Source: Blastocatellia bacterium (GTDB taxonomy: Bacteria > Acidobacteriota > Blastocatellia > UBA7656). From it: a stretch of DNA of 64,000 bases. The notes beneath the pieces were generated by a model. It saw only the letters and a program-made list of their open reading frames with translations. It was not told the origin of the DNA and did not search any database. The position numbers and the translations under genes are program-made. Positions 4,691-55,964 of this stretch are shown one piece after another; positions within the stretch are counted from its first letter, which is position 1; each line of letters begins with the position of its first letter. The stretch covers positions 576,001 through 640,000 of the forward strand of contig CAVXWP010000007.1 in the NCBI GenBank assembly GCA_963765495.1, written 5' to 3'.

Positions 4691-4729
4691 AGAGAACTAT
4701 CATAAAAGATAGTTAGAGGGGAGTAATAA

Positions 4730-5746: not shown

Positions 5747-5813
5747 ATCGAAGCGCTTTCAAAGCAGCGATAGCTCCGTATCACTGGAATGCGCTATTTG
5801 ATGAAGTGACGGC

Positions 5814-6779: not shown

Positions 6780-6786
6780 GGAACTG

Positions 6787-7653: not shown

Positions 7654-7669
7654 TAGCGGAAAAAGCGAT

Positions 7670-36029: not shown

Positions 36030-36103
36030 TGGGAGGTCGTTCAACGGTAGGACAGCAGACTCTGGATCTGCTTATCGGGGTTCAAATCCCTGCCTCCCAG
36101 CCA
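36030..36103 (+). tRNA. tRNA-Gln (anticodon CTG)
   Basis: Acceptor tgggagg/cctccca, anticodon arm gcaga-ctCTGga-tctgc, T-loop ggttcaaatcc, encoded CCA. Confidence 0.95.
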
Positions 36104-36182: not shown

Positions 36183-37109
36183 TTAAAGTTCAAGGTTGCT
36201 GCGAAGCCTGGCGATGTCACGTTGCGGCGGAGCGCCGAAATGCTTCTTGTATTCGCGGCTGAAGTACGACGGATCTTCGTAGCCCACGCGGATTGCGGCG
36301 CTCGCAGCGTCCAGGTCCTCGCCAAGCATCAGGCGGCGTGCTTCCTGGAGCCGTATCTGTTTCTGGAATTGCAACGGGCTCATCGCCGTGACCGACTTGA
36401 AGTGATGGTGGAAGCCCGAGACGCTCATCCCGAGCTCGCGTGCCATGTCTTCGATTTTAAGCGGCTCATCGAAGTTTTCGCGCAAACGCCCGATCGCCTT
36501 GGATATGCGGCGGGTTTCCCCGGCCGAAGCCAGCAGGTGGCCGAGCCGCGCACCCTGGCCCCCCGCCAGGAGGCGGTAGACGATTTCTCTGATGGTGAGC
36601 AGCGCGAGGAATGTGCGCTCTCCCGGCGCATCGAGCAGACGCACCAGCCTGACGACCGCGTCAAGCATATCGGCGTCGATCGGACTGACGGCTATCGCCC
36701 TTACGCTCGCGTCACTCTTCTTTGATTCCACGCCGGACTCCATCAGGACCGAGGCGACGAGGGACGGGTCGAGGTTCAGCCGGAGGCCGAGGTAAGGTCT
36801 TTCCTTCGACGCCTCTTCTACCTGGAAGATGACCGGCAAATCGACCGTGAAGATCAAGTAGTGTCCCGGGTCGTACCGGAACAGTTCCTCGCCCAAAAGA
36901 ACTTGCTTGCTGCCCTGAACAACAAAGCAAAAGGCAGGCTGGTAAACGGACTGTACCGATTCGATCGGCTTCGATGAACGGGCGAGGGAAAAACCGGGGA
37001 AGGCCTCCATCGCTCCGTCTTCGGGAAGGGCGGTCGCCATCCGCTCGACCAGTTCCTCTCTGATGCTTTGCATCCTTTGCGCCTCGCCTTTCACTTCTCG
37101 ACGGTTCAT
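36183..37109 (-). CDS. AraC family transcriptional regulator (YqhC-like)
   Basis: QGSKQVLLG...PYLGLRL N-domain; GMSVSGFHHHFK, SPLQFQKQIRLQEAR, VGYEDPSYFSREYKK. Confidence 0.92.
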   Translation of the reverse strand: MNRREVKGEAQRMQSIREELVERMATALPEDGAMEAFPGFSLARSSKPIESVQSVYQPAFCFVVQGSKQVLLGEELFRYDPGHYLIFTVDLPVIFQVEEASKERPYLGLRLNLDPSLVASVLMESGVESKKSDASVRAIAVSPIDADMLDAVVRLVRLLDAPGERTFLALLTIREIVYRLLAGGQGARLGHLLASAGETRRISKAIGRLRENFDEPLKIEDMARELGMSVSGFHHHFKSVTAMSPLQFQKQIRLQEARRLMLGEDLDAASAAIRVGYEDPSYFSREYKKHFGAPPQRDIARLRSNLEL

Positions 37110-37194: not shown

Positions 37195-37284
37195 ACTGCC
37201 GCCTTATATCCCATAGCTCTTATAATTAACATCAGACAGGGGGATAGTGGGTGAGCAGACTTCGTGGCAAACAGGAGCAAGGTT

Positions 37285-38031
37285 ATGAGCGATAACATCG
37301 AAGGTAAGGTGGTGGTCATCACGGGCGCGAGCAGCGGGCTTGGCGAGGCGACGGCCCGATTGCTATCCGCAGAGGGCGCGAGCGTCGTGCTGGGCGCTCG
37401 GCGCGTCGAGCGCATCAAGTCACTGGCCGACGAGTTGACCAACAGCGGCGGCAAGGCGTTCGCTGTTACGACAGACGTTACCCGGTTCGACCAGATGAAG
37501 AGATTGGTTGACGCTGCTGTAGAGACCTACGGGCGTATCGACGTCATGCTTAACAACGCCGGGCTGATGCCGCACTCGCCGCTCGAACGCCTCAAGGTCG
37601 AAGACTGGGAGCAGATGATCGACGTCAACATCAAGGGCGTGCTCTACGGCATCGCTGCGGCGCTCCCGTACATGAAGGAGCAGAAGTCGGGGCACTTCAT
37701 TAACGTCTCTTCCGTGGCCGGCCACAAGGTGCGCCCCGGCGGCGTGGTCTATGCGGCGACCAAGCACGCCGTGCGCGCAATCTCGGAAGGGCTGCGGATG
37801 GAGGTGAAGCCCTACAACATCCGCACGACGGTGATCTCGCCGGGCGCTGTTGCCACGGAACTCGTTGACAGGATCACCGAGCCGGATATTCGGGAGGGCA
37901 TCCGCAAGATGACCGCCGAGATGGCGCTACCCGCCGAGACGTTCGCGCGCATGGTCGCCTTCGCCATGAGCCAGCCGGAGGAGGTGGACGTTAACGAGAT
38001 ACTGTTCCGGCCAACCCGTCAAGAATTGTAA
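37285..38031 (+). CDS. SDR family oxidoreductase
   Basis: [32 protein letters not shown]. Confidence 0.93.
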
Positions 38032-38099
38032 CCACAGTGAGTAGCGCAAATTGAGAATAGTCTTTCCAGGTTTTGAAAAGAAGATCTGATTTTCATCCC

Positions 38100-40855
<2,756 letters not shown>

Positions 40856-40927
40856 TAGCATTTTGAAGTGGGCAGAATGGTCTTGGGGCGACACCGCCAG
40901 GACCATCTAACTCCGCAGGGGCAAGGT

Positions 40928-40975
40928 GTGGACGTTAACGAAATCCAGTTCCGCCCCACGCGCCAGGAGCTGTAA
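40928..40975 (+). pseudogene. Remnant C-terminus of an SDR oxidoreductase
   Basis: Translates [15 protein letters not shown], nearly identical to the end of the SDR at 37984-38031. Confidence 0.75.
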
Positions 40976-41033
40976 GTACCTCTGTTTGCCGTGGGAGGGT
41001 TCCGCCTATATTCACCGAATCGAAAGGATCGAA

Positions 41034-41504
41034 ATGAAACTGCTTGCCGCAACGGCTATAACGCTTTCTCTGTTTGCCTCGGCGTTCGCCCAGACGAATC
41101 AGGCGGAGGCCGCCGCGAGTCCCGGCGTCGCCCAGGCTCCGGGCTCGCAGTCAATCAGGATCACTCGCGGCGGCTCGCAGCCCTCCCGGAAGGGACCGGC
41201 CGAGAACTTCACCGGCTCCGTGCGCGTCGCCCCCAAGTTGGCCGAACTGACTGACGACGTGCTGTACGGCGACGTCTGGGAACGTCCGCAGCTGTCGAAA
41301 CGTGACCGAAGCCTGGTGACGGTGGCCGCGCTGATCGCCTTGAACCGTCCAGACCATCTCCGGTCTCACCTCGTCAAGGCGCGCGAAAACGGCGTGACCG
41401 AGGAGGAGTTGATCGAGACGATCACTCACCTGGCGTTTTACGCGGGCTGGCCTAACGCGGTAACTGCCATCGGCGTTGCAAGGGAAGTTTTCGAGAAGAA
41501 GTGA
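41034..41504 (+). CDS. Carboxymuconolactone decarboxylase family protein with signal peptide and truncated cupin start
   Basis: MKLLAATAI signal; GPAENFTGSVRV (cupin N-terminus) joined directly to APKLAELTDDVLYGDVWERP...HLAFYAGWP (CMD). Confidence 0.75.
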   Translation: MKLLAATAITLSLFASAFAQTNQAEAAASPGVAQAPGSQSIRITRGGSQPSRKGPAENFTGSVRVAPKLAELTDDVLYGDVWERPQLSKRDRSLVTVAALIALNRPDHLRSHLVKARENGVTEEELIETITHLAFYAGWPNAVTAIGVAREVFEKK

Positions 41505-41602
41505 GTTAAGGAGAGCACATCGAAGGAGGAATAATGCAAAAGCAGGAACCCGGAAAGAGCAAGCTGAACTTCTCGCCCCTTGTGGGCACTGGGGCAACTT
41601 CT

Positions 41603-42785
<1,183 letters not shown>

Positions 42786-43145
42786 GACAAGGCATTAGCG
42801 GCGGAAGAACTGAGTGAACGTAAACCAGATCGATTTAGCATGAGGAGATAAATTCACGGAGATCTTTCCAGCACTGCTCATTTATGGAATAGCGAAGATG
42901 AGATTGCTCGCCGGCGGCCAGAGTCATCACGCCATCGTCAAGCCTCTGACCAGCGGCATTGTAACCATGCTCTTGTCTGTGTTGAGCTAGCGCCTGTCTT
43001 TTGTGCACCAGTTGTGCGCCAAGGCAGTCGCACAGGATGAAACTGGACGGCACAGGAGTGAAGAAAACGGGTTCGAAAGGCGCAACGGAATCAAAGGAAA
43101 GAGAGCAGGATTGCACCCACTGAAACGAGACAAAACAGGTCCGGG

Positions 43146-43195
43146 GCAGACTCGGGATCTGCTCGCTCGGGGTTCGCCTACCTGCCTCCCAGCCA
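43146..43195 (+). pseudogene. Degenerate 3' fragment of tRNA-Gln (att-like site)
   Basis: gcagactcgggatctgc...ggggttcg...cctgcctcccagcca aligns to 36055-36103; 5' acceptor strand and D-arm absent. Confidence 0.8.
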
Positions 43196-43213
43196 TTATT
43201 ATCAAGGGTTTAA

Positions 43214-43241
43214 GGCCATCGAAAGGTGGCCCTTTTCATTT
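43214..43241 (+). terminator. Intrinsic terminator after tRNA fragment
   Basis: ggccatc-gaaa-ggtggcc hairpin followed by cttttcattt. Confidence 0.65.
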
Positions 43242-43339
43242 CAAAAATACAGTTTAATTTGCGCGTATTGAGCACTTGCACTAGACTAACTGACTGCGCT
43301 AATCGAGTTTTTTGAGAATCAAAGCAAGAGAGGTAACTT

Positions 43340-44254
43340 ATGAGCGATAAATCGGGTCTGGCCTCTTCGGCCAGGACCAATAATCCGTCAATGATTGATG
43401 TATCGGAACTGGCCGCATCTGTTGGCGAAGCGCGACGCGAACTTCTCAACGAGGTCAAGCAGAGGCGCGATGTAATCAAGCCGCTTGAGCAGGCGTTGCG
43501 CGCGCTTAAAGACCCGCATGGAAACGCCGTTGCGCTTTATGAAGCGAGCGTGCTGCTCGAAAAACCGCCCGAAGAATTGACTCTGCCGGAAGGGTACACC
43601 CGGTTTGTGGCCGAGTTGCGCTCGCTCGCGGATGCCCAACTCTCCGAGCTTGAGTTTACATTTGCCCGCGACCTGCGCGCTGCCTTCAAGGAAAAGGGTG
43701 TTAAGCTTGAAGGTCCACCTTCGGAATTGATCAGCGATCTCTTTGTTATCAAACCTGATTTACGCAAGAAACAGGTGCAAATGACATTTTCACGCCAGCC
43801 CGTCACCGGCAAGAAAATCAAGCTCGATGTGGATCAGGTAGTATCTGCTTACGAGCGAGCGCGGCGAGAAATCTGTGAGCGCAAGGTTGATCCTGACAAA
43901 CTCCTGGCGGAGATTTTCGAAGCCTACGAGCGCACCCTCAAACTCACAGGGAAACAGATGGGCGCGCGCGCAAGCATAGTCGATTGTTATCGTGAACTCG
44001 TACTGGTTCGCCAGCCGCTCGGTTTTCGCAAGGCTCCGTCGAAACTCAGCTTCGTCGATTATCCCAAGACTCATTTCGCTTACGACATGCTCGAACTGCG
44101 CCGCCGACATAAGCTTACGCACCAGGGACATCGCCTTAACCTCGGCACCGCAACCATCGATGTGGGCAGCGACACCACCCGCGCCATGTTCTTAGCGACA
44201 GGCGCAACCGAGGGCCAGTTCATTAAAGATATTTACTTCACACGGGAGAAATAG
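43340..44254 (+). CDS. Hypothetical protein, first gene of putative defence cluster
   Basis: 304-aa ORF, gaggt RBS, helical N-terminus, stop overlaps GTG of next gene; no family recognised. Confidence 0.8.
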   Translation: MSDKSGLASSARTNNPSMIDVSELAASVGEARRELLNEVKQRRDVIKPLEQALRALKDPHGNAVALYEASVLLEKPPEELTLPEGYTRFVAELRSLADAQLSELEFTFARDLRAAFKEKGVKLEGPPSELISDLFVIKPDLRKKQVQMTFSRQPVTGKKIKLDVDQVVSAYERARREICERKVDPDKLLAEIFEAYERTLKLTGKQMGARASIVDCYRELVLVRQPLGFRKAPSKLSFVDYPKTHFAYDMLELRRRHKLTHQGHRLNLGTATIDVGSDTTRAMFLATGATEGQFIKDIYFTREK

Positions 44255-44256
44255 TG

Positions 44257-45540
44257 ATGACACTCACGCAGCAGGAAGCGCAGCACGTGGTGCGCAAACT
44301 GGGCGAATCCGGCATCCCGCCTACACGAGGACTCGAAGCGTATAGTGTAGGGCTGGATTCGCTGCTTGAAACGCTCGAAAGCGAATATTTATGTGGTTAC
44401 CTCAAAGACGGCGGCTCAAGTTTCAAACTTGTAGTCGGCGAATATGGCAGCGGCAAATCACATTTTCTCTATCGTCTCAGGGACAAGGCGTGGGAGAGCG
44501 GATACGTCGTCAGCCGCACCGAATTGAGTCCGAAAGAATGCCCTTATGACAATCAACTGAAAGTCTATCAAGCAATCGTAAGCAACCTGATTTCTCACAG
44601 CCGTGACCCAAACGTCGAAGATACTCAAGGTATCGAGGCTTTCCTCGAGAGCCATTTCTTTCATACTCTGAACACACTTGGAGTCGAGCAGCCCGTCACA
44701 TCGATCGGGCTGGATCTGCGCGTCAAGCTGTGGCTGGAGACGATTCTGCGATTCAAGGTCGAAAGTCCTTCATACCGTCACGCGGTCTATTTTTACTTGC
44801 AGGCCGTGGCCGAGGAGAACGAGGCCAATAAGAGGCTCATTAGCGCCTGGCTGCGTGGCGAAGCAATATCTCTTAGAGATGTGCGCGAGTTCAGCATTAC
44901 CGAAAGAATGGATCGCTCAGTCGCTTTCAAGATGCTGCGGTCGCTTTCGCAGTTGATACATGAGTTTGGTTATGTCGGGCTTGTCCTCTTATTCGACGAA
45001 GGTGATCGCATGGTCAGCATCAGTTCATCGCGCTCCGAAAAGATCGCTTGCGACAACTTGCGCGAGGTCATCGACCGGTGCGCCGGGGAGAGTCTACCCT
45101 CAACGATGTTCGTCTATGCGGTCCCTCCTTATTTCGTCAGCAATATCGCGCCCCAGTATGAAGCGCTCAGCCAGAGAATCAGTTCCAAAGTAAAATTCTC
45201 GCGCAAAAACCCTTTCAGCGTGCAGATCAGCCTCGACCAGCTAGATTATCCGGGCGAGAAACTGCTGACGTTGATAGGCGAGAAACTGCTGGGCGTTTTC
45301 GAGACTGCTTATGACGTTAAATTTGACCGCGAGATTCAGACTCAAAATATCGCCGGACTGGCCCAGTCCTGTGCCTCTCTACTTTCAACCAGCCACCGCC
45401 GCCATTTTGTGAAATCGCTGATAAATATATTGACCGAACAGCACGTCGAGGGCGAAAAGCTTTACGAAGCCGATAGCGTGCAAGGCATAGTGCGGCAGGT
45501 GACTGAACAACTGGGCCGCTCCGAAGGGGGAGAGTATTAA
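44257..45540 (+). CDS. P-loop ATPase, BrxD/DUF2791-like
   Basis: KLGESGIPP, Walker A VGEYGSGKSH, Walker B LVLLFDEGD, NLREVID, YEALSQRI. Confidence 0.82.
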   Translation: MTLTQQEAQHVVRKLGESGIPPTRGLEAYSVGLDSLLETLESEYLCGYLKDGGSSFKLVVGEYGSGKSHFLYRLRDKAWESGYVVSRTELSPKECPYDNQLKVYQAIVSNLISHSRDPNVEDTQGIEAFLESHFFHTLNTLGVEQPVTSIGLDLRVKLWLETILRFKVESPSYRHAVYFYLQAVAEENEANKRLISAWLRGEAISLRDVREFSITERMDRSVAFKMLRSLSQLIHEFGYVGLVLLFDEGDRMVSISSSRSEKIACDNLREVIDRCAGESLPSTMFVYAVPPYFVSNIAPQYEALSQRISSKVKFSRKNPFSVQISLDQLDYPGEKLLTLIGEKLLGVFETAYDVKFDREIQTQNIAGLAQSCASLLSTSHRRHFVKSLINILTEQHVEGEKLYEADSVQGIVRQVTEQLGRSEGGEY

Positions 45541-45547
45541 TTCCGTT

Positions 45548-46975
45548 ATGATCGGTTCAATTGTTAATCACCCGCTTTTTGGGCGCGGGCGGGTGCTTGA
45601 GATGCGCAATGCCGCGCGGGAGGCTGTCGTGCGCTTCGACAACCGAATCCGCGCGGTAGTACAGACAAACATGCTTTCGGTCTTAGAGCAGGCGCAGCCG
45701 CGAGCCGCCTCATATTCCCCGCGCCCGTCGCCGCCAGAGCGCGTTGAGGTTGTGCTTACACCCGAAGAGATGGATCAGCTTAAGGCTCGACGCACAATCG
45801 AGGCTCTACGCTACGGCGTTGTGCCAGGCGAACGCATACGCGAGCTTAGCGTTGGGCTTGAGAAGGAGCGAGAAAGCCTTCATCGCGCATTCGATGAAGT
45901 CGAGCGTGCTGGCGGCGACGTCCGCGTAATCATCGGCGAATACGGCGCGGGCAAGAGCCACTTCTTTGAGATGTCGGCGCAGGAAGCGCTTGAGCGAAAC
46001 TTCCTGGTAGCCAGCGCCAGCCTTGATATACGCGAGGTTCCTCCGAATCGCCCCCAGCGCATTTATAACGCGCTGATTCGTTCGCTGCGGTATCCAGACT
46101 CCGAGGAAACCGGCACGCTGGTTCCTCTCTTTGATCGCGTCCTTAGCGAGCCTGCGCTTTCCGCCTCACTTATGGAAAGGTTGCACGGCACAGCCTTTGG
46201 CACGGTGCTCTACAATTACTCTCTGATGCGCTCTTCGCCCGGCGAAGAGCTTGACCTGCTGCTCGATTGGATTTCAGGCGAGAAAGTATACATCAAGTCG
46301 GTGCGAGATTCGCTTGCGGTTAAGAGTAAAGATTTCCCCGTGCGCGCTCTATCAATGATGACCACGTCCGCCGACCAGTATTGCTATCTGCTTAACGGGT
46401 GGGGATGGCTGGCATCAAGAGTGGGATACGCCGGACTGGCCGTCTTTCTCGACGAGTCAGAACATTACAGCCTGCTTAACCAGCGCGGACAGGAGCGCGC
46501 GGACAACTTTTTTAAAGCGATGATCTACACGGCTATGGCTTCACGCCCCGATTGCCGTTTGAGCGAGAGCGACCTGACCCATCAGCAGCGCGAACATCCG
46601 TTTCGTTTCTCCGACCGAAGCGAGTTGCTCTTGATGTTTGCGGTCACGCCCGCAGCCAGCACGTTCGACTACCGCCGGTGGTTGGATGAAGATCAGCTAT
46701 TGACACTCAACGGCCATTTGCCTGCGGATGAGATAGATAAGCTGATGGCGCAAATTCATGCGCTGCATCGCCAGGCGTACTCTTATGAGCAGAATATATC
46801 GCACCTTGAGATATCTCAAAGCGTCCGGGATTGTCTGGATAGAAGACTCATCAACCTTCGCCAGACGATTCGCCTCACCACAGAAATTTATGACCTCTGC
46901 TACGCTTATCCTGATTACAGCGCATCGCAAGCAGCCGAAGATATACGCCGCAGCTTGATAGGAATTGCCTTATAG
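45548..46975 (+). CDS. P-loop ATPase, BrxD/DUF2791-like, with N-terminal Tudor/SH3-like segment
   Basis: IEALRYGVVP, Walker A IGEYGAGKSH, Walker B AVFLDESE; N-terminal VNHPLFGRGRV. Confidence 0.82.
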   Translation: MIGSIVNHPLFGRGRVLEMRNAAREAVVRFDNRIRAVVQTNMLSVLEQAQPRAASYSPRPSPPERVEVVLTPEEMDQLKARRTIEALRYGVVPGERIRELSVGLEKERESLHRAFDEVERAGGDVRVIIGEYGAGKSHFFEMSAQEALERNFLVASASLDIREVPPNRPQRIYNALIRSLRYPDSEETGTLVPLFDRVLSEPALSASLMERLHGTAFGTVLYNYSLMRSSPGEELDLLLDWISGEKVYIKSVRDSLAVKSKDFPVRALSMMTTSADQYCYLLNGWGWLASRVGYAGLAVFLDESEHYSLLNQRGQERADNFFKAMIYTAMASRPDCRLSESDLTHQQREHPFRFSDRSELLLMFAVTPAASTFDYRRWLDEDQLLTLNGHLPADEIDKLMAQIHALHRQAYSYEQNISHLEISQSVRDCLDRRLINLRQTIRLTTEIYDLCYAYPDYSASQAAEDIRRSLIGIAL

Positions 46976-47074
46976 GGTTTGAGACCCGAGACGAAAGGCC
47001 GGGGGCAGGGAGTTTAAATTCACGTCCCTGCAAGCCTGGATTATAGCTGCAACTGTCGACCTCGGATTTCGGTC

Positions 47075-47117
47075 CTGAACTCTTAAGCTGAACCCTTAAG
47101 CTGAACCCTTAAGCTGA
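47075..47117 (+). repeat. 13-bp tandem repeat (CTGAACCCTTAAG, about 3.3 copies)
   Basis: ctgaactcttaag ctgaacccttaag ctgaacccttaag ctga, ending 6 nt before the helicase ATG. Confidence 0.85.
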
Positions 47118-47123
47118 GTTTTT

Positions 47124-49217
47124 ATGCCTGATCTCAAGAACAAGCTGCCGCACACCTGGGAGGCGCTGCTGGCCCGCTTTGGCCGCTTTACCGAAATACA
47201 GGCTCTCGCGATAGAACCGCTTCTTGCGGGAAACAATTGCATCCTGATTTCAGCTACTGCGAGCGGCAAGACGGAGGCGGCGCTCGCGCCTATACTTGAG
47301 CGGCACAAACAAAACATCGACCGAAATCGCGCCTACGACTCTTGTCTTAATATCGTTTACATAGTTCCCACGCGCGCGCTCACGCGGGATCTGGCCCGGC
47401 GTCTCGAACAACCCCTTGATAGAATCGCCGTGTCTATGCGTGTAAAAACCGGCGATGAGCCTGCGCTCAATCGCCGCCGCCCTCCCGAATTGTTGCTTAC
47501 CACTCCTGAATCGCTCGATTCGTTGCTTGCAAACTCACCGCGAATGCTCAAAGACGTGAGTACAGTCATTCTTGATGAGATTCATCTATGCGACAATACC
47601 CCGCGCGGCGATCAGTTGCGCATACTCCTGAATCGCCTGCGAAGAATAAAGCGCTATGCGCTTGCGCGCGGGGACGTAGGAAATGATCGGATGCAGTTTT
47701 GCGCGCTTTCAGCCACGGTGGATGATCCTCAAAGCGTGGCGTCTCGTTATTTTGCGGATCCGATTATCGTCAAAGCCGGCGGTCGGCGCGATCTCGATGC
47801 CGAGTTGATCGCTATGGAAAGCATAGATTCACTCCGGCTGCTATTGGCTGATCTCAAGCGCCGGGCCTTTAAGAAGGTCCTCGCCTTTTGCAATCGCCGA
47901 GCGGAGTGTGAAGAACTGGCGCACGTGTTTGGCCAGGGCTCTGTGTTTGGCAATCGCGTGTTTGTGCATCACGCAAGCCTGGATGCGCGACTTCGGCGCA
48001 GGGCAGAGAAAGAGTTTGCGATATCGGATGCTGCACTATGCTTTACCACTTCGACGCTTGAGCTTGGGATAGACATAGGCGATGTTGATCTGGTTATTCT
48101 CATAGGACCCCCGGAAAACACAAGCGCATTCTTGCAGCGCATAGGCCGTGGCAATCGCCGCACATCTCGCGCGGCGGTGGTTTGCTTTTACCGCACTGCG
48201 ATGGAGCGAGCGATATTTCATGCATTCATACGCGCAGCCGAGTCGGGTGATGTTGAATCGAATCCCTACTATTTCCGCCCTTCGGTTGTAGTGCAACAAC
48301 TTTGCTCCTATGTAAAGCAGACGCATCTGGGAGAGATCGATCCTGACAGCGCCTACGAGTTGTTCGCGTCACCTCAAGGCGGTCCGCTCATCGCTAGAGA
48401 CTTATATGATCAGATCATAGATCACCTGCTTACAAAAGCCTATTTCGTCCCGGCGCGCGGAAACTCTCTCAGGCCCGGTCCAAAGTGGAAAGAGCTAAAC
48501 GAGCAACGCGCAATTTATACAAATCTAACCGATGCGAATCCCGGTTCGTTTGATATTGTAGATGAGCTTACAGGGCGTAAGTTAGGTGAGGTGGACCGGG
48601 GAGCCGTCCGTGAGGACACGTTTTTATTTGGCGGCAAGACGCGGCAGGCTATAGGGCTTAAAGGGAATAGGTTGGTAGTGCGTCCAGTGGAAGATGAAAC
48701 AGCCGCCGCCGCGCCCAGGTTTCGCACGCCCTGGCGTCCTTTGACGCACAAACTGGCCAGGGCTATTGCCGCAGAATTGGGTGTGCCTCAAGCCCCTTCC
48801 GCCTCCGAGATAGTGATGGTAGTTGGCAAGGACGATAGTCAGGTTGATGGTCGGTCCGTGACTGAGCGTGGACAAGGTGAGACAGCCTGGGTCTTCCATT
48901 GTGCGGGGGATACTTATGGAGTGGTACTTGGCGATTTATTAGAGGTTTCATACGGGGTGAAACTGAAAGAGTACAATGGGCTTTATCTGGTATTGGGGGG
49001 AAGGCTGACAGCCAACCTGGTCTCATTCAGCGTCGAGCAGGTTCGTGCACGACTCCGGCGCAGGTGGAATCAATTTGAGAGATGGTTTGACATGGGCCGC
49101 TTTCAAAGCCATCTACCGTTAGCAGTTCGCCGCGCAAGCGTAATAGAGGCTTTTAATATAGAAGAGTTCTTGCGCGTCTTCTCAGGGCGCAAAGTGGTTG
49201 AAGTCCATAGGCGATAG
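47124..49217 (+). CDS. DEAD/DEAH-box SF2 helicase, Lhr-type
   Basis: FTEIQ, ATASGKT, PTRAL, TTPESL, DEIH, SAT, HHASL, TSTLELGIDIG, QRIGRGNRR. Confidence 0.92.
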   Translation: MPDLKNKLPHTWEALLARFGRFTEIQALAIEPLLAGNNCILISATASGKTEAALAPILERHKQNIDRNRAYDSCLNIVYIVPTRALTRDLARRLEQPLDRIAVSMRVKTGDEPALNRRRPPELLLTTPESLDSLLANSPRMLKDVSTVILDEIHLCDNTPRGDQLRILLNRLRRIKRYALARGDVGNDRMQFCALSATVDDPQSVASRYFADPIIVKAGGRRDLDAELIAMESIDSLRLLLADLKRRAFKKVLAFCNRRAECEELAHVFGQGSVFGNRVFVHHASLDARLRRRAEKEFAISDAALCFTTSTLELGIDIGDVDLVILIGPPENTSAFLQRIGRGNRRTSRAAVVCFYRTAMERAIFHAFIRAAESGDVESNPYYFRPSVVVQQLCSYVKQTHLGEIDPDSAYELFASPQGGPLIARDLYDQIIDHLLTKAYFVPARGNSLRPGPKWKELNEQRAIYTNLTDANPGSFDIVDELTGRKLGEVDRGAVREDTFLFGGKTRQAIGLKGNRLVVRPVEDETAAAAPRFRTPWRPLTHKLARAIAAELGVPQAPSASEIVMVVGKDDSQVDGRSVTERGQGETAWVFHCAGDTYGVVLGDLLEVSYGVKLKEYNGLYLVLGGRLTANLVSFSVEQVRARLRRRWNQFERWFDMGRFQSHLPLAVRRASVIEAFNIEEFLRVFSGRKVVEVHRR

Positions 49218-49336
49218 ATGAACTGCTGACATTAGATCTGATAGACGCGCAAGAACTCTTTTAACGCCGCTCGGAACTCAGATTCATTTGTACCAATCTC
49301 TTGCGGAGTGATTTAGCAAACGAAAGGAAAAAATAC

Positions 49337-49726
49337 ATGAGTAATCTCAATGCGGTTCAAGATGTCTATAAGGCATTTGCTGAAGGCGACATTCCCAGAG
49401 TGCTGGGATTTTTAAGCCCCGGTATTGCCTGGACAGAAGCCGAGGGATTCCCCTACGGCGGGACGTACAACGGTCCCGAAGCCGTGCTTGAAGGTGTGTT
49501 TATGCGGTTGGGAACCGAGTGGGATGGTTTTGCCGCCGTGCCTGATGAGTTCATTGACGGTGGAGATACCATCGTCGTGTTGGGGAAATACAGCGGCACG
49601 TACAAGGCTACGGGCAAGAGCTTTCAAGCAAATTTTGCGCACGTATGGACTATACAAGAGGGGAAATCGATCAGGTTTGTGCAGTATGCGGATACGCTGT
49701 TGGTGCAAAGAGCGTTACAAGCATAA
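49337..49726 (+). CDS. NTF2/SnoaL-like protein
   Basis: YKAFAEGD, WTEAEGFPYGGTYNG, FAHVW, FVQYADT. Confidence 0.87.
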   Translation: MSNLNAVQDVYKAFAEGDIPRVLGFLSPGIAWTEAEGFPYGGTYNGPEAVLEGVFMRLGTEWDGFAAVPDEFIDGGDTIVVLGKYSGTYKATGKSFQANFAHVWTIQEGKSIRFVQYADTLLVQRALQA

Positions 49727-49743
49727 AAGCAGGCGTCACGCTT

Positions 49744-49842
49744 ATGGGAGAATGTAAGAATAGATTGCTCCGCGCGCTGACACTGACGGATGCGATCGCG
49801 ATCGTCGTTGGCACGGTGATCGGGACGGGCATCTTCCTGAAG
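49744..49842 (+). pseudogene. N-terminal remnant of an APC-family amino acid permease
   Basis: LLRALTLTDAIAIVVGTVIGTGIFLK (TM1 motif), then loss of similarity next to the GMC gene end. Confidence 0.7.
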
Positions 49843-49864
49843 GATGGGCGACGCAGCGGGCAGT

Positions 49865-51550
49865 CTACAGATTGCCGCGTTTTAGCTCCTTCACTGCGTA
49901 ATCACATGCCCGCGCCGTCAGTGCCATGTAAGTGAGCGAGGGGTTCTGACAGGCCGTAGAAACCATGCAGGAGCCATCCGTCACAAACACATTGAGCGCG
50001 TCGTGGCATTGGTTGAATCGGTTCAACACAGAAGTCTTAGGGTCATTGCCCATCCGAGCCGTTCCCATCTCGTGAATGCAGCCGCCGGGTACCGGCTCTA
50101 AAGGCAAAGGCTGAATATTCTTCAACCCGCCTACGGCAAGCATCTCTTCGGCAGATGCCTGCATGTCTTTGCGCATGGCCAGTTCGTTTTCGCCGTACTC
50201 GATATCAAGGTTGAGCGTCGGCAGTCCCCATTGATCCTTCTTGTCCCGGTTCAGCGTCACGCGATTCTTATCATCAGGCAAACACTCGCCGTAACCTACC
50301 AGCAGCATAGACCAGCTGCCGGGTCGCACCATCTCGCTCTTGAAATCCGCACCCATCCCCTGCCGGTAGAATCCCCGCTGCCAGTTCTCCCTTCCCGAAT
50401 AGGCTTCAAAGGCGAACCCGCGCAGGTAATCGGTTCGCTTCTCTGCGATATTCCTGAAACGCGGAATATACATGCCGTTCGGCTTGCGACCGCGATAATA
50501 CTTATCCTCGAAGCCGTCATAATTGCCCATCGCGCCGCCGGTCTCCTGATGATCCATGAGGTAATGACCGAGCACGCCACTCGAATTGGCAAAGCCATTC
50601 GGAAAATGCGCCGAGGTCGAGTTCAACAGAATCAAAGTCGTGTTCAGCGTTCCGGCATTCAGGAAGATGATGCGGGCGAAATACTCATACGTCTTTTTCG
50701 TTTCGGCATCAATGACGCGCACGCCGACCGCGCGTTTTTTGTCGGCGTCATAAATCAGGCTGTGCACGATTGAAAAAGGGCGTAGCGTCAGATTGCCGGT
50801 CTTTGCCGCCGCAGGCAACGTCGATGAGTTGCTACTGAAATATGCACCATAAGGACAGCCCCGCGCGCACATGTTGCGCGACTGGCAGCGGCCTCTGCCC
50901 TTGTGGGGGCGCGTCAACACCGCTACGCGAGCGACGATCATGCGGCGGTCGCTGTAGTGACTGGCGATGCGCTGCTTTACGTGACGTTCAAGACAATTCA
51001 TCTCCAGAGGCGGCAGCAGGATTTGATCGGGCAGTTGCGCGAGACCGGCATTTTCGCCGCTGACGCCGACGAACTCTTCGACGTGGTCGTACCACGGCGC
51101 GATGTCGCGGTAGCGTATGGGCCAGTCAATCGCTATGCCTTCTTTGGCATTGGCCTCAAAGTCGAGGTCGCTCAAGCGGAAACAGTGGCGCGACCACATC
51201 AGCGACTTGCCGCCGGTCTGGTAGCCGCGCATCCAGTTGAACGGCTTGATCTGATTATAAGGATGATCCGTGTCTTTAACGAAGAAATGCTTGGTGTCCT
51301 GTTTAAAGTTATAAACCTTCTTCTGGATGAAATACTCATCTTGATCCTTGAGGCTCAGTTCGTTAGCATACGGCAGATCCCATGGATCTTTATTGGCGGT
51401 CGGGTAGTCCTTGATGTGTTCGACGTGTCGACCTCGTTCGAGAACTAAAGTCTTCAGCCCTTTTTCGGTCAGTTCCTTGGCTGCCCAGCCGCCCGACATG
51501 CCTGAGCCGACAACGATAGCGTCATAGGTATGAGATTCTTTTGCCGACAT
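49865..51550 (-). CDS. GMC family oxidoreductase (flavoprotein subunit)
   Basis: VGSGMSGGWAAKEL, GGKSLMW, CxxxxxCxxxC cluster, HEMGTARMG, NPSLTYMALTARA. Confidence 0.92.
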   Translation of the reverse strand: MSAKESHTYDAIVVGSGMSGGWAAKELTEKGLKTLVLERGRHVEHIKDYPTANKDPWDLPYANELSLKDQDEYFIQKKVYNFKQDTKHFFVKDTDHPYNQIKPFNWMRGYQTGGKSLMWSRHCFRLSDLDFEANAKEGIAIDWPIRYRDIAPWYDHVEEFVGVSGENAGLAQLPDQILLPPLEMNCLERHVKQRIASHYSDRRMIVARVAVLTRPHKGRGRCQSRNMCARGCPYGAYFSSNSSTLPAAAKTGNLTLRPFSIVHSLIYDADKKRAVGVRVIDAETKKTYEYFARIIFLNAGTLNTTLILLNSTSAHFPNGFANSSGVLGHYLMDHQETGGAMGNYDGFEDKYYRGRKPNGMYIPRFRNIAEKRTDYLRGFAFEAYSGRENWQRGFYRQGMGADFKSEMVRPGSWSMLLVGYGECLPDDKNRVTLNRDKKDQWGLPTLNLDIEYGENELAMRKDMQASAEEMLAVGGLKNIQPLPLEPVPGGCIHEMGTARMGNDPKTSVLNRFNQCHDALNVFVTDGSCMVSTACQNPSLTYMALTARACDYAVKELKRGNL

Positions 51551-51575
51551 TGATAAACGCGCCTCCGACTCGTGG

Positions 51576-52160
51576 TTAAATGAATGGCATTGCGTCTGCT
51601 TTTTGCCCGGGCTGCAGTTGTGTGCAACCTTCAAAAGGGCCGGGCGACCGCACGTAGGTAGCGGCTTTCGTCGCGCCCGGCTGCGAAGAGAAAAAGCCCA
51701 TCAGCGTCAGGTTCTTCAACATCCGAATGAAGGACTGTTCTGCGGCTTCACCTCGGTCCCAGCTTTCCTTCTCTATCTGTTTGAGCAAGCTGAGTCGCTC
51801 GTCCGCCGACAGATTGAGAAAGGGTTGGCGCAACTGTTTCCGGCTAATCGCGTCGAGGTCGTCCAAACCTTTGAGAAAGAGCTCCTGCTGCGCTTTGGGA
51901 TAACAATCTTTGACATATAGATCAACGAAGACGTGTGTAAGCGCCTCTTTTGCGCCGGGCGTGTCAGTCGCGGGAATAATGACTTCGACCAGTTCCTGAA
52001 GCAACGCCGCCTGTTGTGCCGACAATAGGCGCGGCTGCCACACCCTTTCCCCCGCCTTGATCGAGGCAGCGGTTTGTAAAAAGTCGGCAACCACACCAGC
52101 GGCCAGCAAATTTCCCCCGACCAGCAACCCTAGTCCTTTGAGCGAGTCTCTTCTATTCAT
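51576..52160 (-). CDS. Gluconate 2-dehydrogenase subunit 3 family (Tat hitch-hiker subunit)
   Basis: MNRRDSLK twin-arginine, IIPATDTPGA, LTLMGFFSS, PGPFEGC. Confidence 0.87.
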   Translation of the reverse strand: MNRRDSLKGLGLLVGGNLLAAGVVADFLQTAASIKAGERVWQPRLLSAQQAALLQELVEVIIPATDTPGAKEALTHVFVDLYVKDCYPKAQQELFLKGLDDLDAISRKQLRQPFLNLSADERLSLLKQIEKESWDRGEAAEQSFIRMLKNLTLMGFFSSQPGATKAATYVRSPGPFEGCTQLQPGQKADAMPFI

Positions 52161-52269
52161 ATGAAAGCCCTCAAATCCTGTGCGCCGTTCGCGCCTCAAC
52201 TGACGAGAACATGGCAGCAAATAACTTGCTGTTCGGTTTAGAGATGGTTTCTAAACTTCCCGGATTCGC

Positions 52270-52857
52270 TCAATTCCCTCGCCGCCCGAAAAGACCTCCA
52301 GCCATTCTCAGTATGTCATCGAGCGAGGACCCGTCGTGGTTGCTGTCGAGCATACTCGTTAGAATGTCAGAAATAGGAGAATTAGAAGCGGTCTGTCTGG
52401 TTGCCCCTCCAAGCACTTCGGGCAGTGAATTCTCATCGATGTTGCCCTGTTGCCGCGATTGACCAACCGCGCCCATCACTATTGGCGCGAGCATCATCAG
52501 CAGCGAGGCCACGCGGCCAAGGTCCAGCCCGCTCGCCTGGCTCACGCCGTTTTGGGCCGTTCCCAGTTTGTCGCCAAATATGTGACCGAGAATTCCTGCG
52601 CCGGGACCAGCCTCGTAGCTTCCGAGGAACCCGCCGAGATCGTTAAGGATGCTTCCGTCGTGGTTTTTATCGAGCGCAGACAGCAGCGACGATGCCCCTT
52701 CGGGCGTCGAGCTGTTTTGCGTCAAGGCACTTAGTAACAACGGCAAGGCTGTTTGCACGGCATTAGATGTAGTCGCTTCGTCCGTGTCAAGTACCTGACT
52801 CATTTGATTGATCGTGTTGCCGTTGAGAGCTTGATTCAAGATTCCTTCGAGATTCAT
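52270..52857 (-). CDS. DUF937 domain-containing protein
   Basis: ALPLLLSAL, ALDKNHDGSIL, GILGHIFG, LMMLAPIVMG, LDSNHDG. Confidence 0.8.
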   Translation of the reverse strand: MNLEGILNQALNGNTINQMSQVLDTDEATTSNAVQTALPLLLSALTQNSSTPEGASSLLSALDKNHDGSILNDLGGFLGSYEAGPGAGILGHIFGDKLGTAQNGVSQASGLDLGRVASLLMMLAPIVMGAVGQSRQQGNIDENSLPEVLGGATRQTASNSPISDILTSMLDSNHDGSSLDDILRMAGGLFGRRGN

Positions 52858-53365
52858 AATCTGTTCCTTTCTATCTGCTCTAACACACCTGCACGCGAGG
52901 CGCAGGCCGGGTCGGGAGTTCCAATCTTGCGCCGAATAAACGATTGCAAGATTATGCCTGGCAGCGAGAGTATAGACCCGTCGGGGTGGAATAAGCTACT
53001 CCTCGCGAGTCTCCGGGGTCGCTACCTCCACTCCACCTGAAAATCTGTACTAACACGGATGAAATGAATTGACCTCACCGGCACGCAAACAAGACAGAAC
53101 GGCCATAGAACCGGGTGGGAGAAGACAAACCATGATTCCGTATGTCAATCAACTCTCCCTGTCGGCTCTGTCTCTCGTTTACACATATCAACGACCCCAT
53201 TATAGCGTTTTGCAAATGGATGCAGCTTGTAGGGACAACCCGAATGAATACATTTTATTATGGTTGCCCGGATCGCCCGAGATGGCCTGAGATGTGCTTC
53301 GCACACGGCGGGCGATGACTGCCCTCGCGCTTACGACGGATTCGGGCAGGGACAAGCCCGCGCCG

Positions 53366-53425
53366 TGCGAAGCACCGTTTGCGCCAATCGCCCCCTACAG
53401 CTACACGCAATTGCAAACAGCTATA
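53366..53425 (+). repeat. Imperfect ~60-bp direct repeat, left copy
   Basis: tgcgaagc...tgcgccaatcgcccc.taca.gctaca...gctata, matches 55788-55847. Confidence 0.7.
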
Positions 53426-53486
53426 GGAGTCACCAACGCGTGGCCTTTTCCTTTTGCGCGCTGCTCGTGCGCCGATTCACGCTTTC

Positions 53487-54413
53487 TTAAAATTCACGAT
53501 TGGTGCGAAACCTGGCGATGTCACGTTGTGGCGGCGCGCCGAAAAGCTTTTTGTACTCTCGGCTAAAGTAGGAGGGGTCCTCATAGCCCACACGGAACCC
53601 GGCGCTCGCTGCGTCCAGGTCTTCACCGAGCATCAGGCGACGTGCTTCCTGGAGTCTTATCTGTTTCTGAAACTGCAAAGGGCTCATCGCCGTGACGGAT
53701 TTGAAGTGATGATGAAAGCCGGAAACACTCATTCCGAGTTCACGCGCGATATTTTCAATTTTAAGTGGCTCATCGAAGTGTTCGCGAAGATGCCCGATTG
53801 CCTTGGAGATGCGGCGAGTGTCTCCTCCAGAAACCAGGAGATGGCTGAGCCGCGCGCCCTGTTCTTCTCTTAAAAGACGGTAGACAATCTCGCGAATGAT
53901 GAGCGGCGCAAGGGCATCTATCTCGTCCGGCGTGTCGAGGAGCCTGGCCAATCTGACAACCGCGTCAAGCAGATTGGCGTCAATCGAGCTAACATCCATC
54001 GCCTTGACGCCAGCGTCGCCCTTTCCAGGTTTGACGCCGGATTCCATCATGACTGAGGCGACCAAAGAAGCATTGAAATTTAACCGAAAGCTCAAATATG
54101 GTTGTTCCTTTGATGCTTCTACTACCTGGCTGACGATCGGCAAATCGACCGTAGAGATTAAATAGTGCCCCGGATCGTAGCGGAATACTTCCTCGCCTAA
54201 AAGCACCTGCTTGCTGCCCTGCGCAATGACGCAAAGGGCAGGCTTGAAGACGGAATGCAGCATCTCCGTCGGTTGAGATGAACGACCGAGGAAAAGGCCG
54301 GGAAATACCTCCGATATTCCGTCCTCGGGAACGGCGCGAGCCATCCGCTCGATCAGTTCCATCCTGTTGATTTCCATCCTTTGCTTCTCACGTTCTGCAT
54401 CCCTGTAGGTCAT
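53487..54413 (-). CDS. AraC family transcriptional regulator (YqhC-like), paralog of 36183-37109
   Basis: Same 308-aa length and near-identical HTH region. Confidence 0.92.
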   Translation of the reverse strand: MTYRDAEREKQRMEINRMELIERMARAVPEDGISEVFPGLFLGRSSQPTEMLHSVFKPALCVIAQGSKQVLLGEEVFRYDPGHYLISTVDLPIVSQVVEASKEQPYLSFRLNFNASLVASVMMESGVKPGKGDAGVKAMDVSSIDANLLDAVVRLARLLDTPDEIDALAPLIIREIVYRLLREEQGARLSHLLVSGGDTRRISKAIGHLREHFDEPLKIENIARELGMSVSGFHHHFKSVTAMSPLQFQKQIRLQEARRLMLGEDLDAASAGFRVGYEDPSYFSREYKKLFGAPPQRDIARFRTNREF

Positions 54414-54458
54414 AAATTCATATTAGCTTCTTTCTTGCCTGTCAGCACGCCGCACGCA

Positions 54459-54498
54459 GAGTTTTTGCAGAATTGTACAATTATTCGCGAGTATCCTC
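54459..54498. promoter_or_regulatory. Conserved operator candidate (copy 2)
   Basis: 37/40 identical to 37155-37194. Confidence 0.6.
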
Positions 54499-54601
54499 TT
54501 ATCTCCCTTTATCCCGGAGCTTTTATAATCAAACTCAAGCAGCAGGACGCAAAAAATGGCTGCTAACAAAACTAAAAGATATTTGGAGAAAGCTGAGGTA
54601 A

Positions 54602-55650
<1,049 letters not shown>

Positions 55651-55787
55651 TTAAGATAGGCGTGCTCTAAGGCATTGCCGCGGCCTTGCCTGGCTGTGTG
55701 TTTTATCTGGACCTGCCATGGTTTAGTGGGCGGTTTTTGACCTGATTATCAGGCGATCTTGTGCCCGCGCAGCAACCGTGACCGCTA

Positions 55788-55847
55788 TGCGAAGCGCATT
55801 ATGCGCCAATCGCCCCTACAGGCTACATCCATTTGAAAATCGCTATA
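55788..55847 (+). repeat. Imperfect ~60-bp direct repeat, right copy
   Basis: Matches 53366-53425. Confidence 0.7.
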
Positions 55848-55964
55848 AATGACGCTGATATACAACTAACTGATCTGCGTTATGAGCGCGGCCCGCATAG
55901 CACCGCTCCCAGAAATGGAGGTATAATACACAGCAGTAAATGAAAGCTGAGTGACTCTAGCTAT

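Follow-up and report, generated by a model that had tools for sequence, protein, structure and literature searches.

A four-gene cassette at 43340..49217 of the window (the whole stretch of DNA that was analysed, 64,000 nt) is best explained as an unnamed third sister to two known pairs, SngB-SngC from Shango and BrxD-BrxHI from BREX types 2 and 6. We found no description of this four-gene cassette in print. A single operon for a four-part nucleic-acid machine is the best explanation of the interval.

Layout and surroundings of the cassette

The genes and the sequence features associated with them are as follows.

43214..43240, + strand, terminator-like hairpin from the terminator scan, about 100 nt upstream of gene 1
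43340..44254, + strand, gene 1, 304 aa, unnamed protein family
44254..45540, + strand, gene 2, 428 aa, GTG start, BrxC/BrxD-family (PF10923) AAA+ ATPase
45548..46975, + strand, gene 3, 475 aa, second, paralogous PF10923 ATPase with an N-terminal Tudor domain
47075..47117, no strand assigned, three overlapping copies of a 17-nt unit, 13 nt apart, from the repeat search, inside the 148-nt spacer between genes 3 and 4
47124..49217, + strand, gene 4, 697 aa, Lhr/BrxHI/SngC-type SF2 helicase
49159..49263, + strand, 21-nt inverted repeat, 95% complementary, spanning the gene 4 stop codon, with T-rich sequence after its 3′ arm

The open reading frames confirm the four co-directional genes of the first-pass annotation and the tight coupling of the first three. 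Genes 1 and 2 share one base, as had been noted, if the GTG start of gene 2 is used; the alternative ATG at 44257 would leave a 2-nt spacer after gene 1, and alignments with relatives begin at residue 2. Genes 2 and 3 are separated by the 7 nt reported earlier, and the spacer between genes 3 and 4 is apparently shorter in the closest relatives, at about 85 nt (L001) and 44 nt (L031) as judged from match coordinates. The upstream hairpin is likely the boundary to the preceding unit. The inverted repeat over the end of gene 4, for which the terminator scan made no call, possibly marks the end of the operon. Neither a nuclease or toxin gene nor any other recognisable effector is encoded within the cassette.

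The GC content of the cassette is not anomalous, no flanking direct repeat marks an island around it, and Rfam returned nothing at E ≤ 1 between 42000 and 50000. The cassette had been placed right after a tRNA att-like site, which proved incorrect: the sole tRNA in the window, tRNA-Gln at 36030-36103, lies 7.2 kb upstream with five metabolic genes intervening. The reported lack of pglX, pglZ and brxC nearby was borne out, as the 15 neighbouring ORFs scanned (37264 to 56957) include no BREX or TerB gene and encode oxidoreductases, an AraC regulator and similar proteins. The same genome carries the BREX genes PglX, PglZ and BrxL on another contig (C5), in a locus of the BrxL-containing kind.

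Protein families and domains

Both ATPases lie far above the gathering cut-off of 22.2 bits for PF10923 (BrxC_BrxD, formerly DUF2791), one of the models that the first-pass annotation had named as a check: gene 2 reaches 164.9 bits over its full length, and gene 3 reaches 126.8 bits. They are the only PF10923 genes in the genome, and the proposed duplication of the ATPase is upheld by two paralogues of one family. The P-loop motifs recognised earlier as GEYGxGKSH and hhhhDE read GEYGSGKSH (Walker A) and LLFDEGD (Walker B) in gene 2, and GEYGAGKSH and FLDESE in gene 3; in both ATPases they are intact, and they are kept throughout the family. Conservation within the cassette is highest for gene 2, with 76-89% identity in Blastocatellia relatives. 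In PADLOC, another of the proposed checks, genes 2 and 3 were best named BrxD/SngB and gene 4 was best named BrxHI/SngC, and gene 1 was assigned to no family, SngA included. PMC12839542 classes PF10923 ATPases as ORC/Cdc6-type.

Gene 3 consists of a Tudor domain at residues ~1-50 (DNA 45548-45700), a low-complexity linker and the ATPase from residue ~76. As modelled by AF2, its N-terminus is a Tudor domain, probably of the PcrA/UvrD kind. The top Foldseek rows for the model are all Tudor domains, with that of PHF1 first and those of UvrD/PcrA among them, at a best E of 4.5e-3 and with no row at E ≤ 0.001. Superposition on 9dqs, 7egt and 5dma gave TM scores of 0.72-0.73 (normalised by target) at an rmsd of 1.7-2.2 Å, the values for 9dqs being 0.73 and 1.7 Å over 50 columns. 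The N-terminus also aligned with the C-terminus of the genome's own UvrD-like protein (hhalign 66%, E 5.6e-5, 43% identity over 30 columns). The sequence motif of the domain is present in 54 of 56 family sequences, and the Tudor domain is absent from the cassette copy on Aulosira laxa plasmid3. The PF21196 HMM had no match in residues 1-123 of gene 3 at E ≤ 10, and its search of the whole genome (E ≤ 1) found the UvrD-like gene and not gene 3.

Gene 4 contains the DEAD (PF00270, 103 bits) and Helicase_C (PF00271, 61 bits) domains with motif I ATASGKT and motif II DEIH, and its best solved relatives are the mycobacterial Lhr structures 5v9x (E 8e-27) and 7lhl (E 4e-26), in agreement with the complete Lhr-type SF2 helicase described from the first reading. 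Against the NCBIfam Lhr-type families it reaches 210 bits with a cut-off of 850, and it is the equivalog of none of them. Mycobacterial Lhr is a DNA-damage-response helicase.

Gene 1 belongs to a new protein family. It had no match in any library searched, Pfam and PADLOC included; together with its 83 relatives it shares no common Pfam family, and TerB families are not among the matches. The protein starts with a helical bundle (residues ~21-118), which is followed by a small alpha/beta domain (~120-180) and, at the C-terminus, by a winged-helix-like domain (~183-304) whose sole matches are weak ones to ORC1/Cdc6 winged-helix domains. This last domain may bind DNA as a winged helix of a kind absent from BrxD-type ATPases. 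The first-pass annotation had the TerB sensor replaced by an unrecognised 304-aa protein, and we likewise rejected gene 1 as a TerB/SngA protein, since its family profile aligned with a real SngA from a Rhodobacter plasmid at 0.5% probability (hhalign). A search of the whole genome for SngA gave no match, but the control of that search likewise matched nowhere, which leaves this negative without weight of its own.

Distribution and possible roles

All four genes are present in 48 of the 50 related loci having at least 6.5 kb downstream, a count that includes near-identical contigs, and the gene order, whose conservation had been posed as a question, is kept across phyla. Acidobacteriota contribute loci, as do metagenome contigs representing a subfamily in which two members carry Chloroflexota names, and one copy is on a cyanobacterial conjugative plasmid. 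In Blastocatellia, 22 of 31 loci have all four genes, eight run off the end of a contig, and L002 retains gene 1 without the other three; of the 11 loci fetched from other Acidobacteriota classes, 7 keep the four genes by tblastn. The metagenome subfamily comprises 80 loci with a gene 1 only 25-33% identical, and the order is intact wherever the contig reaches. Median gaps between the genes across loci are 8, 13 and 15.5 nt.

Gene 1 was found in 40 of 401 genomes of the class (a count taking in G000 and one unpublished genome, G245), representing 21 of 88 genera, and in 17 of 401 genomes of the phylum sample. About 90% of the genomes in the class lack the cassette, as do 44 of the 52 genomes in its own family, many of which are >95% complete. 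Among the 144 nearest neighbours from 56 loci, 20 have mobile-element or defence-type Pfam domains and 124 are housekeeping or metabolic, and about 7 of the 144 have a specific PADLOC match by our reading; as these counts have no baseline, we make no claim of enrichment. Genes flanking other loci encode, among others, IS transposases, a type IV restriction enzyme, a type IIG enzyme, an NB-ARC/TPR protein, an EAD1 protein, and a primase-polymerase alongside a terminase. Gene 1 matched none of 72,556 plasmids by tblastn, the one plasmid copy being detectable by profile only, and none of 2.9 million viral contigs.

On the homology to defence modules and the patchy distribution, the most likely role of the cassette is defence against phages or other mobile DNA, to which we give about an even chance. 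The alternative is a cellular genome-maintenance module rather than immunity, in which an RNA-polymerase-docked helicase and its loader would act on stalled transcription, R-loops, replication-transcription conflicts or DNA damage. Such a module would be passed on mostly by vertical descent, with losses in many lineages; we consider this alternative possible, if somewhat doubtful. The absence from most genomes favours defence over maintenance, as do flanks that vary even between closest relatives, a position not conserved between genera, a second version just 37% identical within the same family (G174), the two decayed copies (L002 and L066), the membership of both characterised sister modules in anti-phage systems and the plasmid3 copy immediately behind a BREX locus. 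Maintenance is favoured by the kinship of gene 4 with Lhr helicases, by the best superposition of the gene 3 Tudor on those of UvrD/PcrA, solved in complexes with the RNA polymerase lobe and UvrB (7egs, 7egt), and by gene 1 identity that roughly parallels taxonomy within the class. The mostly housekeeping flanks, the lack of an effector gene and of viral copies, and the single plasmid copy fit maintenance and count against defence. So does the universal presence of the genes in two small Acidobacteriota orders (4/4 and 3/3 genomes). In one of these orders gene 1 lies on another contig than the ATPase pair, which is unusual for a defence cassette, and the only locus read there (L144) has a divergent gene-4-like helicase beside the pair. 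It is the housekeeping flanks and this universal, once unlinked, occurrence that keep the maintenance role in consideration. For the defence reading of the first-pass annotation, the patchiness speaks in favour, and the pattern in the two orders, which that annotation had itself listed as refuting, speaks against.

A further possibility is that an integrated mobile element uses the cassette for its own replication or maintenance, the ORC/Cdc6-like ATPases and winged-helix protein acting as initiator and loader for the element's own helicase. This is improbable: the window and most loci lack an integrase, an att repeat or other element genes, the cassette stands isolated amid metabolic genes, and the viral contigs hold no match. 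Moreover, Lhr-type helicases are not known to be replicative helicases. In favour of this reading are the ORC/Cdc6 classing of PF10923 ATPases in PMC12839542, the weak but exclusive resemblance of the gene 1 C-terminal domain to ORC1/Cdc6 winged helices, and a locus (L080) adjoining a primase-polymerase and a terminase, together with several beside IS transposases.

The products of genes 2 and 3 could form a hetero-oligomeric ATP switch or loader. This switch and gene 1 would sense the state of DNA or transcription and then load or activate the helicase, and the Tudor domain might dock the assembly on RNA polymerase or a UvrB-like partner, as in UvrD/PcrA. Since the cassette has neither nuclease nor toxin, the end result would be that the helicase displaces or unwinds a foreign replication or transcription complex, or that host nucleases are recruited. 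A more specific proposal, which we think unlikely to hold, is a nuclease-free surveillance machine riding RNA polymerase, in which the Tudor-bearing ATPase tethers an ORC/Cdc6-like hetero-oligomeric loader, the winged-helix adaptor and the Lhr-like helicase. Transcription of the invader, or its signature of R-loops or stalled complexes, would be the trigger, and helicase loading would then abort the invader's replication or transcription. If true, this would represent a defence principle other than restriction, abortive infection or signalling, and would hint at the role of SngB-SngC in Shango and of BrxD-BrxHI in BREX.

Comparison with Shango, BREX and related helicases

Could the cassette be merely a divergent Shango, or a BrxD-BrxHI remnant of a decayed BREX type 2/6 locus? 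The PADLOC names of genes 2 to 4 and the BREX genes elsewhere in the genome point that way. The sequence comparisons already contradict this explanation, which we regard as very improbable. The gene 1 family is unrelated to SngA by profile, none of its 83 members has a TerB Pfam domain, two ATPases are present in 48 of the 50 loci with enough sequence, and the genome's BREX locus is on a different contig and of the BrxL-containing kind. The two ATPases, at 126 and 70 bits, fall short of the 350-bit cut-off of the NCBIfam BrxD equivalog. The conjugative plasmid3 of Aulosira laxa provides the most direct comparison, since there the cassette directly follows a complete type-6 BREX locus, BrxE-BrxA-BrxB-BrxC-PglX-PglZ-BrxD-BrxHI. 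The true BrxD of this plasmid scores 552 bits and its true BrxHI 848-929 bits on the PADLOC models, against 121, 55 and 326 bits for the adjoining cassette copy and 124, 70 and 252 bits for the genes of the window. The cassette and BrxD-BrxHI coexist side by side on this plasmid and are therefore not interchangeable orthologues.

Shango is reportedly composed of the TerB-domain protein SngA, the ATPase SngB and the helicase SngC (Millman et al. 2022; Johnson et al. 2022/2023). Its validation against phages is described in 10.1101/2022.11.11.516204. The cassette resembles Shango in combining a PF10923-type ATPase with an Lhr-like DEAH helicase behind a leading third protein and without a nuclease or methyltransferase. 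The SngB model gave 104 bits for gene 2 and 78 bits for gene 3 (PADLOC), and the SngC model gave 197 bits for gene 4 over profile positions 24-551 of 720, lower than the 252 bits obtained with BrxHI. Whereas Shango has one ATPase and a TerB lead, the cassette has two paralogous ATPases, the second with a Tudor domain, and a lead unrelated to SngA/TerB. In the opposite direction, HMMs of the cassette family gave a real SngB 102 bits, where true gene 2 orthologues exceed 400, and gave a real SngC 230 bits, where the gene 4 orthologue of the cyanobacterial plasmid reaches 435.

PMC12839542 describes BrxD-BrxHI as a linked dyad of BREX-2 and also carries the proposal that BrxHI is loaded or activated by BrxD. 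The cassette shares with the dyad of BREX types 2 and 6 the same two protein families in the same order, but it scores 4- to 5-fold under true BrxD and BrxHI on the same models, has no adjoining PglX, PglZ, BrxC or PglW, and adds an ATPase and a lead gene. Gene 4 is a DExH SF2 helicase like mycobacterial Lhr (5v9x, 7lhl), but differs in its C-terminal part, in its obligate ATPase partners and in bit scores far below the Lhr-type cut-offs. The Tudor domain of gene 3 has the five-stranded small barrel and the H-x3-G-x-G ... V-x-F signature of the PcrA/UvrD Tudors (PF21196; PDB 9dqs, 7egs, 7egt, 6yi2, 5dma), but theirs is C-terminal on a helicase, whereas that of gene 3, missed by the PF21196 HMM, is N-terminal on an ATPase. 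These comparisons agree with the first-pass view of an architecture distinct from Shango and BREX.

Organization of the four-gene cassette and its surroundings

The first-pass annotation had described four co-directional genes as a candidate anti-phage system, and the arrangement was borne out by the ORF coordinates.

Features of the cassette and the gene pairs that bracket it
43340-44254, + strand: gene 1 (304 aa), ORF call
44254-45540, + strand: gene 2 (ATPase), ORF call
45548-46975, + strand: gene 3 (ATPase), ORF call
47124-49217, + strand: gene 4 (helicase), ORF call
36183-37109 and 41934-42785: AraC-regulator and aldo/keto-reductase pair (locus compared, L148)
53487-54413 and 54632-55627: paralogous AraC-regulator and aldo/keto-reductase pair (locus compared, L148)

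Gene 2 can start at a GTG sharing one base with the gene 1 stop codon or at an ATG three bases on, and the alignment of its relatives begins at residue 2. Genes 2 and 3 are separated by 7 nt, and genes 3 and 4 by 148 nt. The latter spacer, which judging from match coordinates is shorter in the two closest relatives, carries at 47075-47117 three overlapping 17-nt units spaced by 13 nt, CTGAAC[C/T]CTTAAGCTGA. Upstream of gene 1, within a gap of 554 nt, lies a 93-aa ORF on the minus strand (42835-43116) which has no match in Pfam and may not be a gene.

Both ATPases matched Pfam PF10923 (BrxC_BrxD) at 164.9 bits for gene 2 and 126.8 bits for gene 3, against a cut-off of 22.2, and gene 4 contains the DEAD and Helicase_C domains. 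PADLOC labels genes 2 and 3 as BrxD/SngB and gene 4 as BrxHI/SngC. The ATPase and helicase motifs quoted by the first-pass annotation are all present in the sequences. Walker A and Walker B are kept in both ATPases throughout the cassette family, and to judge by these sequences both paralogues appear active. Gene 4 is an Lhr-type helicase, its best solved relatives being mycobacterial Lhr (5v9x, 7lhl); for gene 2, a profile run against PDB sequences brought up no relative of solved structure. A search of the window's own genome recovered no PF10923 gene besides genes 2 and 3.

The cassette is flanked by oxidoreductases, an AraC regulator and similar genes, and the two paralogous AraC-regulator and aldo/keto-reductase pairs listed above bracket it. 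As the AraC gene and both reductase orthologues are adjacent in a related genome (G081), the window region is rearranged relative to that genome. The cassette had also been placed right after a tRNA att-like site, but the sole tRNA in the window is a tRNA-Gln at 36030-36103, 7.2 kb upstream and separated by five metabolic genes. Rfam gave no match at E<=1 over 42000-50000, no repeats were found flanking the cassette, and its composition is unremarkable. The tRNA, Rfam and repeat scans thus rule out a tRNA/att reading of 42786-43339.

Conservation of gene order and the gene 1 family

Related loci were traced through gene 1, taken as the specific marker. Species-representative genomes, mostly labelled Blastocatellia or Pyrinomonadaceae, yielded 31 loci, of which 22 have all four genes in order, eight are truncated by the end of the contig and the remaining one, L002, has only gene 1; the window's flanking genes are common to none of the 31. 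Among 11 further Acidobacteriota loci, ten from other classes and one (L059 in genome G174) from the window's own family, tblastn found all four genes in seven, gene 1 being 24-37% identical in its matches. The gene 1 of L055 and that of L058 were missed by tblastn and found by the profile of a broad gene 1 alignment, and L056 is cut. A narrower alignment was used to collect 80 metagenome loci of a gene 1 subfamily of ~345 aa, in which the genes follow one another from 1 to 4 on every contig of sufficient length.

Conservation of the four-gene order in other genomes, which the first-pass annotation had proposed as a check, was found in 48/50 pooled loci that have 6.5 kb or more of sequence downstream of gene 1, and gene 2 was present in 91/91 that have 1.5 kb or more; these counts include near-identical contigs and some short duplicate loci, and exclude L054 and L057, whose weak gene-1-like matches fall under the threshold. 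The two exceptions are the decayed copies L002 and L066. The median intergenic gaps are 8, 13 and 15.5 nt, which are lower bounds because ORF starts were set at the first start codon. The four-gene unit is therefore real, and co-occurrence of gene 1 with the ATPases and helicase is obligate. Since two members of the 345-aa subfamily are named at source as Aggregatilineales and Anaerolineae, the range of the cassette takes in Acidobacteriota and Chloroflexota at the least, the taxon names of distant homologues resting on these two Chloroflexota proteins and on unverified Atlas cluster labels.

Several loci depart from the usual arrangement. In L002, gene 1 is 86% identical and the other genes are absent; in L066, gene 3 is frameshifted and split in two, gene 4 is absent and a Uma2 gene stands in the helicase's place. 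L058 (G718:C3, 5973-12983) has three consecutive PF10923 ATPases of 399, 434 and 455 aa, the last bearing the Tudor motif, and a helicase, with a 319-aa protein weakly related to gene 1 upstream and an IS630-type transposase fragment downstream. An empty insertion site was sought in relatives and none was recovered, family-level synteny being confined to gene pairs.

Gene 1 has no match in Pfam or PADLOC. An exhaustive HMMER search places it in a large, unnamed family, of which 455 representatives were found at E<=1e-3. Its fold is predicted confidently (pLDDT 94.0) as a bundle of three helices, a small alpha/beta domain and a C-terminal domain of helix-helix-helix-hairpin form. Foldseek of this model against the PDB gave no row at E<=0.001, and the gene 1 profile against PDB sequences returned coiled-coil noise only. 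A divergent TerB protein was ruled out, as the family has no TerB domain and its profile aligned to real SngA, the TerB protein of Shango, with a probability of 0.5%. A 733-aa 'fusion' (P0218) of phosphoglucomutase with a gene 1 fragment is most likely a gene-calling artefact. The distant homologue P0237 (366 aa) carries an N-terminal Rho_N (SAP-like) match with an E-value of 1.4e-5, just above the cut-off, a hint that the gene 1 family may bind nucleic acids.

Distribution, neighbourhoods and candidate roles

We put the chance that the cassette serves in defence at about even. Both sister modules, SngB-SngC of Shango and BrxD-BrxHI of BREX, are part of anti-phage systems according to 10.1101/2022.11.11.516204 and PMC12839542. 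A defence role is also favored by patchy occurrence: gene 1, its marker, is found in 40/401 genomes of the class (32/350 of high quality, 21/88 genera; G000, the window's own genome, and the unpublished G245 are counted) and in 17/401 genomes of the phylum sample. The flanks vary between genera, a second type that is 37% identical exists within the same family (G174), decayed copies occur (L002 and L066), and one copy, carried by a conjugative plasmid, follows a BREX locus. Among the scattered neighbours that point the same way are IS transposases, type IV and type IIG restriction enzymes, a methylase with a PDC-S01 gene, NB-ARC/TPR and EAD1 proteins, four Uma2 genes, and a terminase together with a primase-polymerase. 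Because the L080 cassette (4048-7889) is directly downstream of these primase-polymerase and large-terminase genes, it may belong to a prophage or satellite, or adjoin one.

The rival reading, a role in genome maintenance or one linked to transcription, is possible, though we consider it less likely than defence. Evidence against defence comes from two small Acidobacteriota orders in which the genes occur in 4/4 and 3/3 genomes, and the former has gene 1 and the ATPase pair on separate contigs. Loci of that order are L054 and L143 in G406, and L057 and L144 in G424; its gene 1 relative has only housekeeping genes around it, and at L144, the one locus read, a gene-4-like helicase lies divergent beside the ATPase pair. 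Neighbourhoods argue in the same direction: Pfam families of mobile-element or defence type occur in only 20/144 sampled nearest neighbours and 15/56 loci as raw counts, and PADLOC matches at E<=1e-10 in 15/144 neighbours, likewise a raw count. Of these PADLOC matches ~7 were judged specific, and the others were to ABC ATPases, a generic methyltransferase, and TPR or HEAT repeats. In addition, tblastn of gene 1 and a distant homologue gave no match in plasmids, two viral-contig scans for gene 1 gave no usable match, and the cassette encodes no effector. A sequencing-run search returned no RNA run and only one soil-metagenome DNA run.

If the defence reading is true, the cassette would be an unnamed system, uncalled by PADLOC 2.0 models, Pfam and NCBIfam, and an addition for Acidobacteriota and Chloroflexota, soil phyla that have received little study. 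If instead it serves maintenance, the Shango/BREX engine would have been recruited from, or into, housekeeping DNA metabolism.

The Tudor domain of gene 3 and comparison with Shango and BREX

Gene 3 has ~75 additional N-terminal residues, with a conserved signature within the first ~50. This signature, H-x3-G-x-G ... V-x-F, is present in 54/56 family sequences, and one of the two exceptions is masked there. The PF21196 HMM did not detect the domain. The N-terminal profile aligned to the C-terminal tail of a UvrD-like helicase of the same genome with an hhalign probability of 66% (E 5.6e-5; 43% identity over 30 columns). AlphaFold predicted residues 1-50 as a five-stranded barrel (pLDDT 86-95), for which Tudor domains filled the top Foldseek rows, none of them reaching E<=0.001. 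The tightest superpositions were with UvrD1 (9dqs; rmsd 1.7 A, TM 0.73), T. thermophilus UvrD (7egt) and PcrA (5dma), and the list also had 7egs, E. coli UvrD in complex with the lobe of RNA polymerase, at a looser fit (rmsd 2.5 A). Gene 3 thus carries a Tudor domain in Acidobacteriota and Chloroflexota-type copies.

PF10923 ATPases are of the ORC/Cdc6 type and have no DNA-binding domain, according to PMC12839542. Such ATPases would be well matched by a winged helix that gene 1 provides in trans, and gene 1 may be a DNA-binding adaptor. The two ATPases might form a heteromeric switch or loader, and the output would be helicase-driven and nuclease-free. The Tudor domain may dock on RNA polymerase or UvrB, which gives one concrete testable hypothesis.

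The cyanobacterium Aulosira laxa NIES-50 has a further copy, on its conjugative plasmid3. All four genes have a relative there: that of gene 1 encodes 279 aa (hhalign probability 98% with E 1e-13 across 151 columns), that of gene 3 is missing the N-terminal domain, and relatives of genes 2 and 4 complete the set. The copy lies directly behind BrxE-BrxA-BrxB-BrxC-PglX-PglZ-BrxD-BrxHI, a complete type-6 BREX locus, and we used this plasmid as a natural calibrator for BrxD and BrxHI scores.

PADLOC scores (bits) of true BREX proteins and cassette proteins
True BrxD and BrxHI on the Aulosira plasmid: BrxD 552; BrxHI models 848-929
Adjacent Aulosira cassette: BrxD 121 and 55; BrxHI models 326
Window genes 2, 3 and 4: BrxD 124 and 70; BrxHI models 252

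The NCBIfam BrxD equivalog likewise gave a cassette ATPase 126 bits against a cut-off of 350. On the cassette-family HMMs, Shango SngB scored 102 bits compared with >400 for true gene 2 orthologues, and SngC 230 bits compared with 435 for a true gene 4 orthologue. Whereas the lead protein of Shango, SngA, is a TerB protein, the family of the cassette's lead protein has no TerB domain. The low scores and the non-TerB gene 1 therefore indicate that the cassette is neither Shango nor a BREX fragment, and the distinct architecture proposed in the first-pass annotation is upheld by the model scores and the non-alignment of SngA. We found no description of the four-gene cassette in the literature searched, including passages of 10.1101/2022.11.11.516204, 10.1101/2025.09.30.679545 and PMC12839542, whose Supplementary Data S1-S3 might list such neighbourhoods.

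The window's own genome also holds, on a contig other than the cassette's (C5:192000-211900, minus strand; L149), genes for PglX (1219 aa), an unassigned 286-aa protein, PglZ (873 aa) and BrxL (679 aa), with a SoFic-like gene adjoining PglX. No BrxC turned up when the whole genome was searched with PF10923.

To our knowledge, the mechanism is not known for either Shango or the BrxD-BrxHI pair of BREX. With the cassette, the ATPase-helicase pair common to both forms the base of a third module, and a widespread sister module offers comparative leverage on what this engine senses and does. What sets the cassette apart from the other two is that its lead protein differs, that its ATPase is duplicated with neither active site lost, and that it carries a Tudor domain, probably of PcrA/UvrD type.
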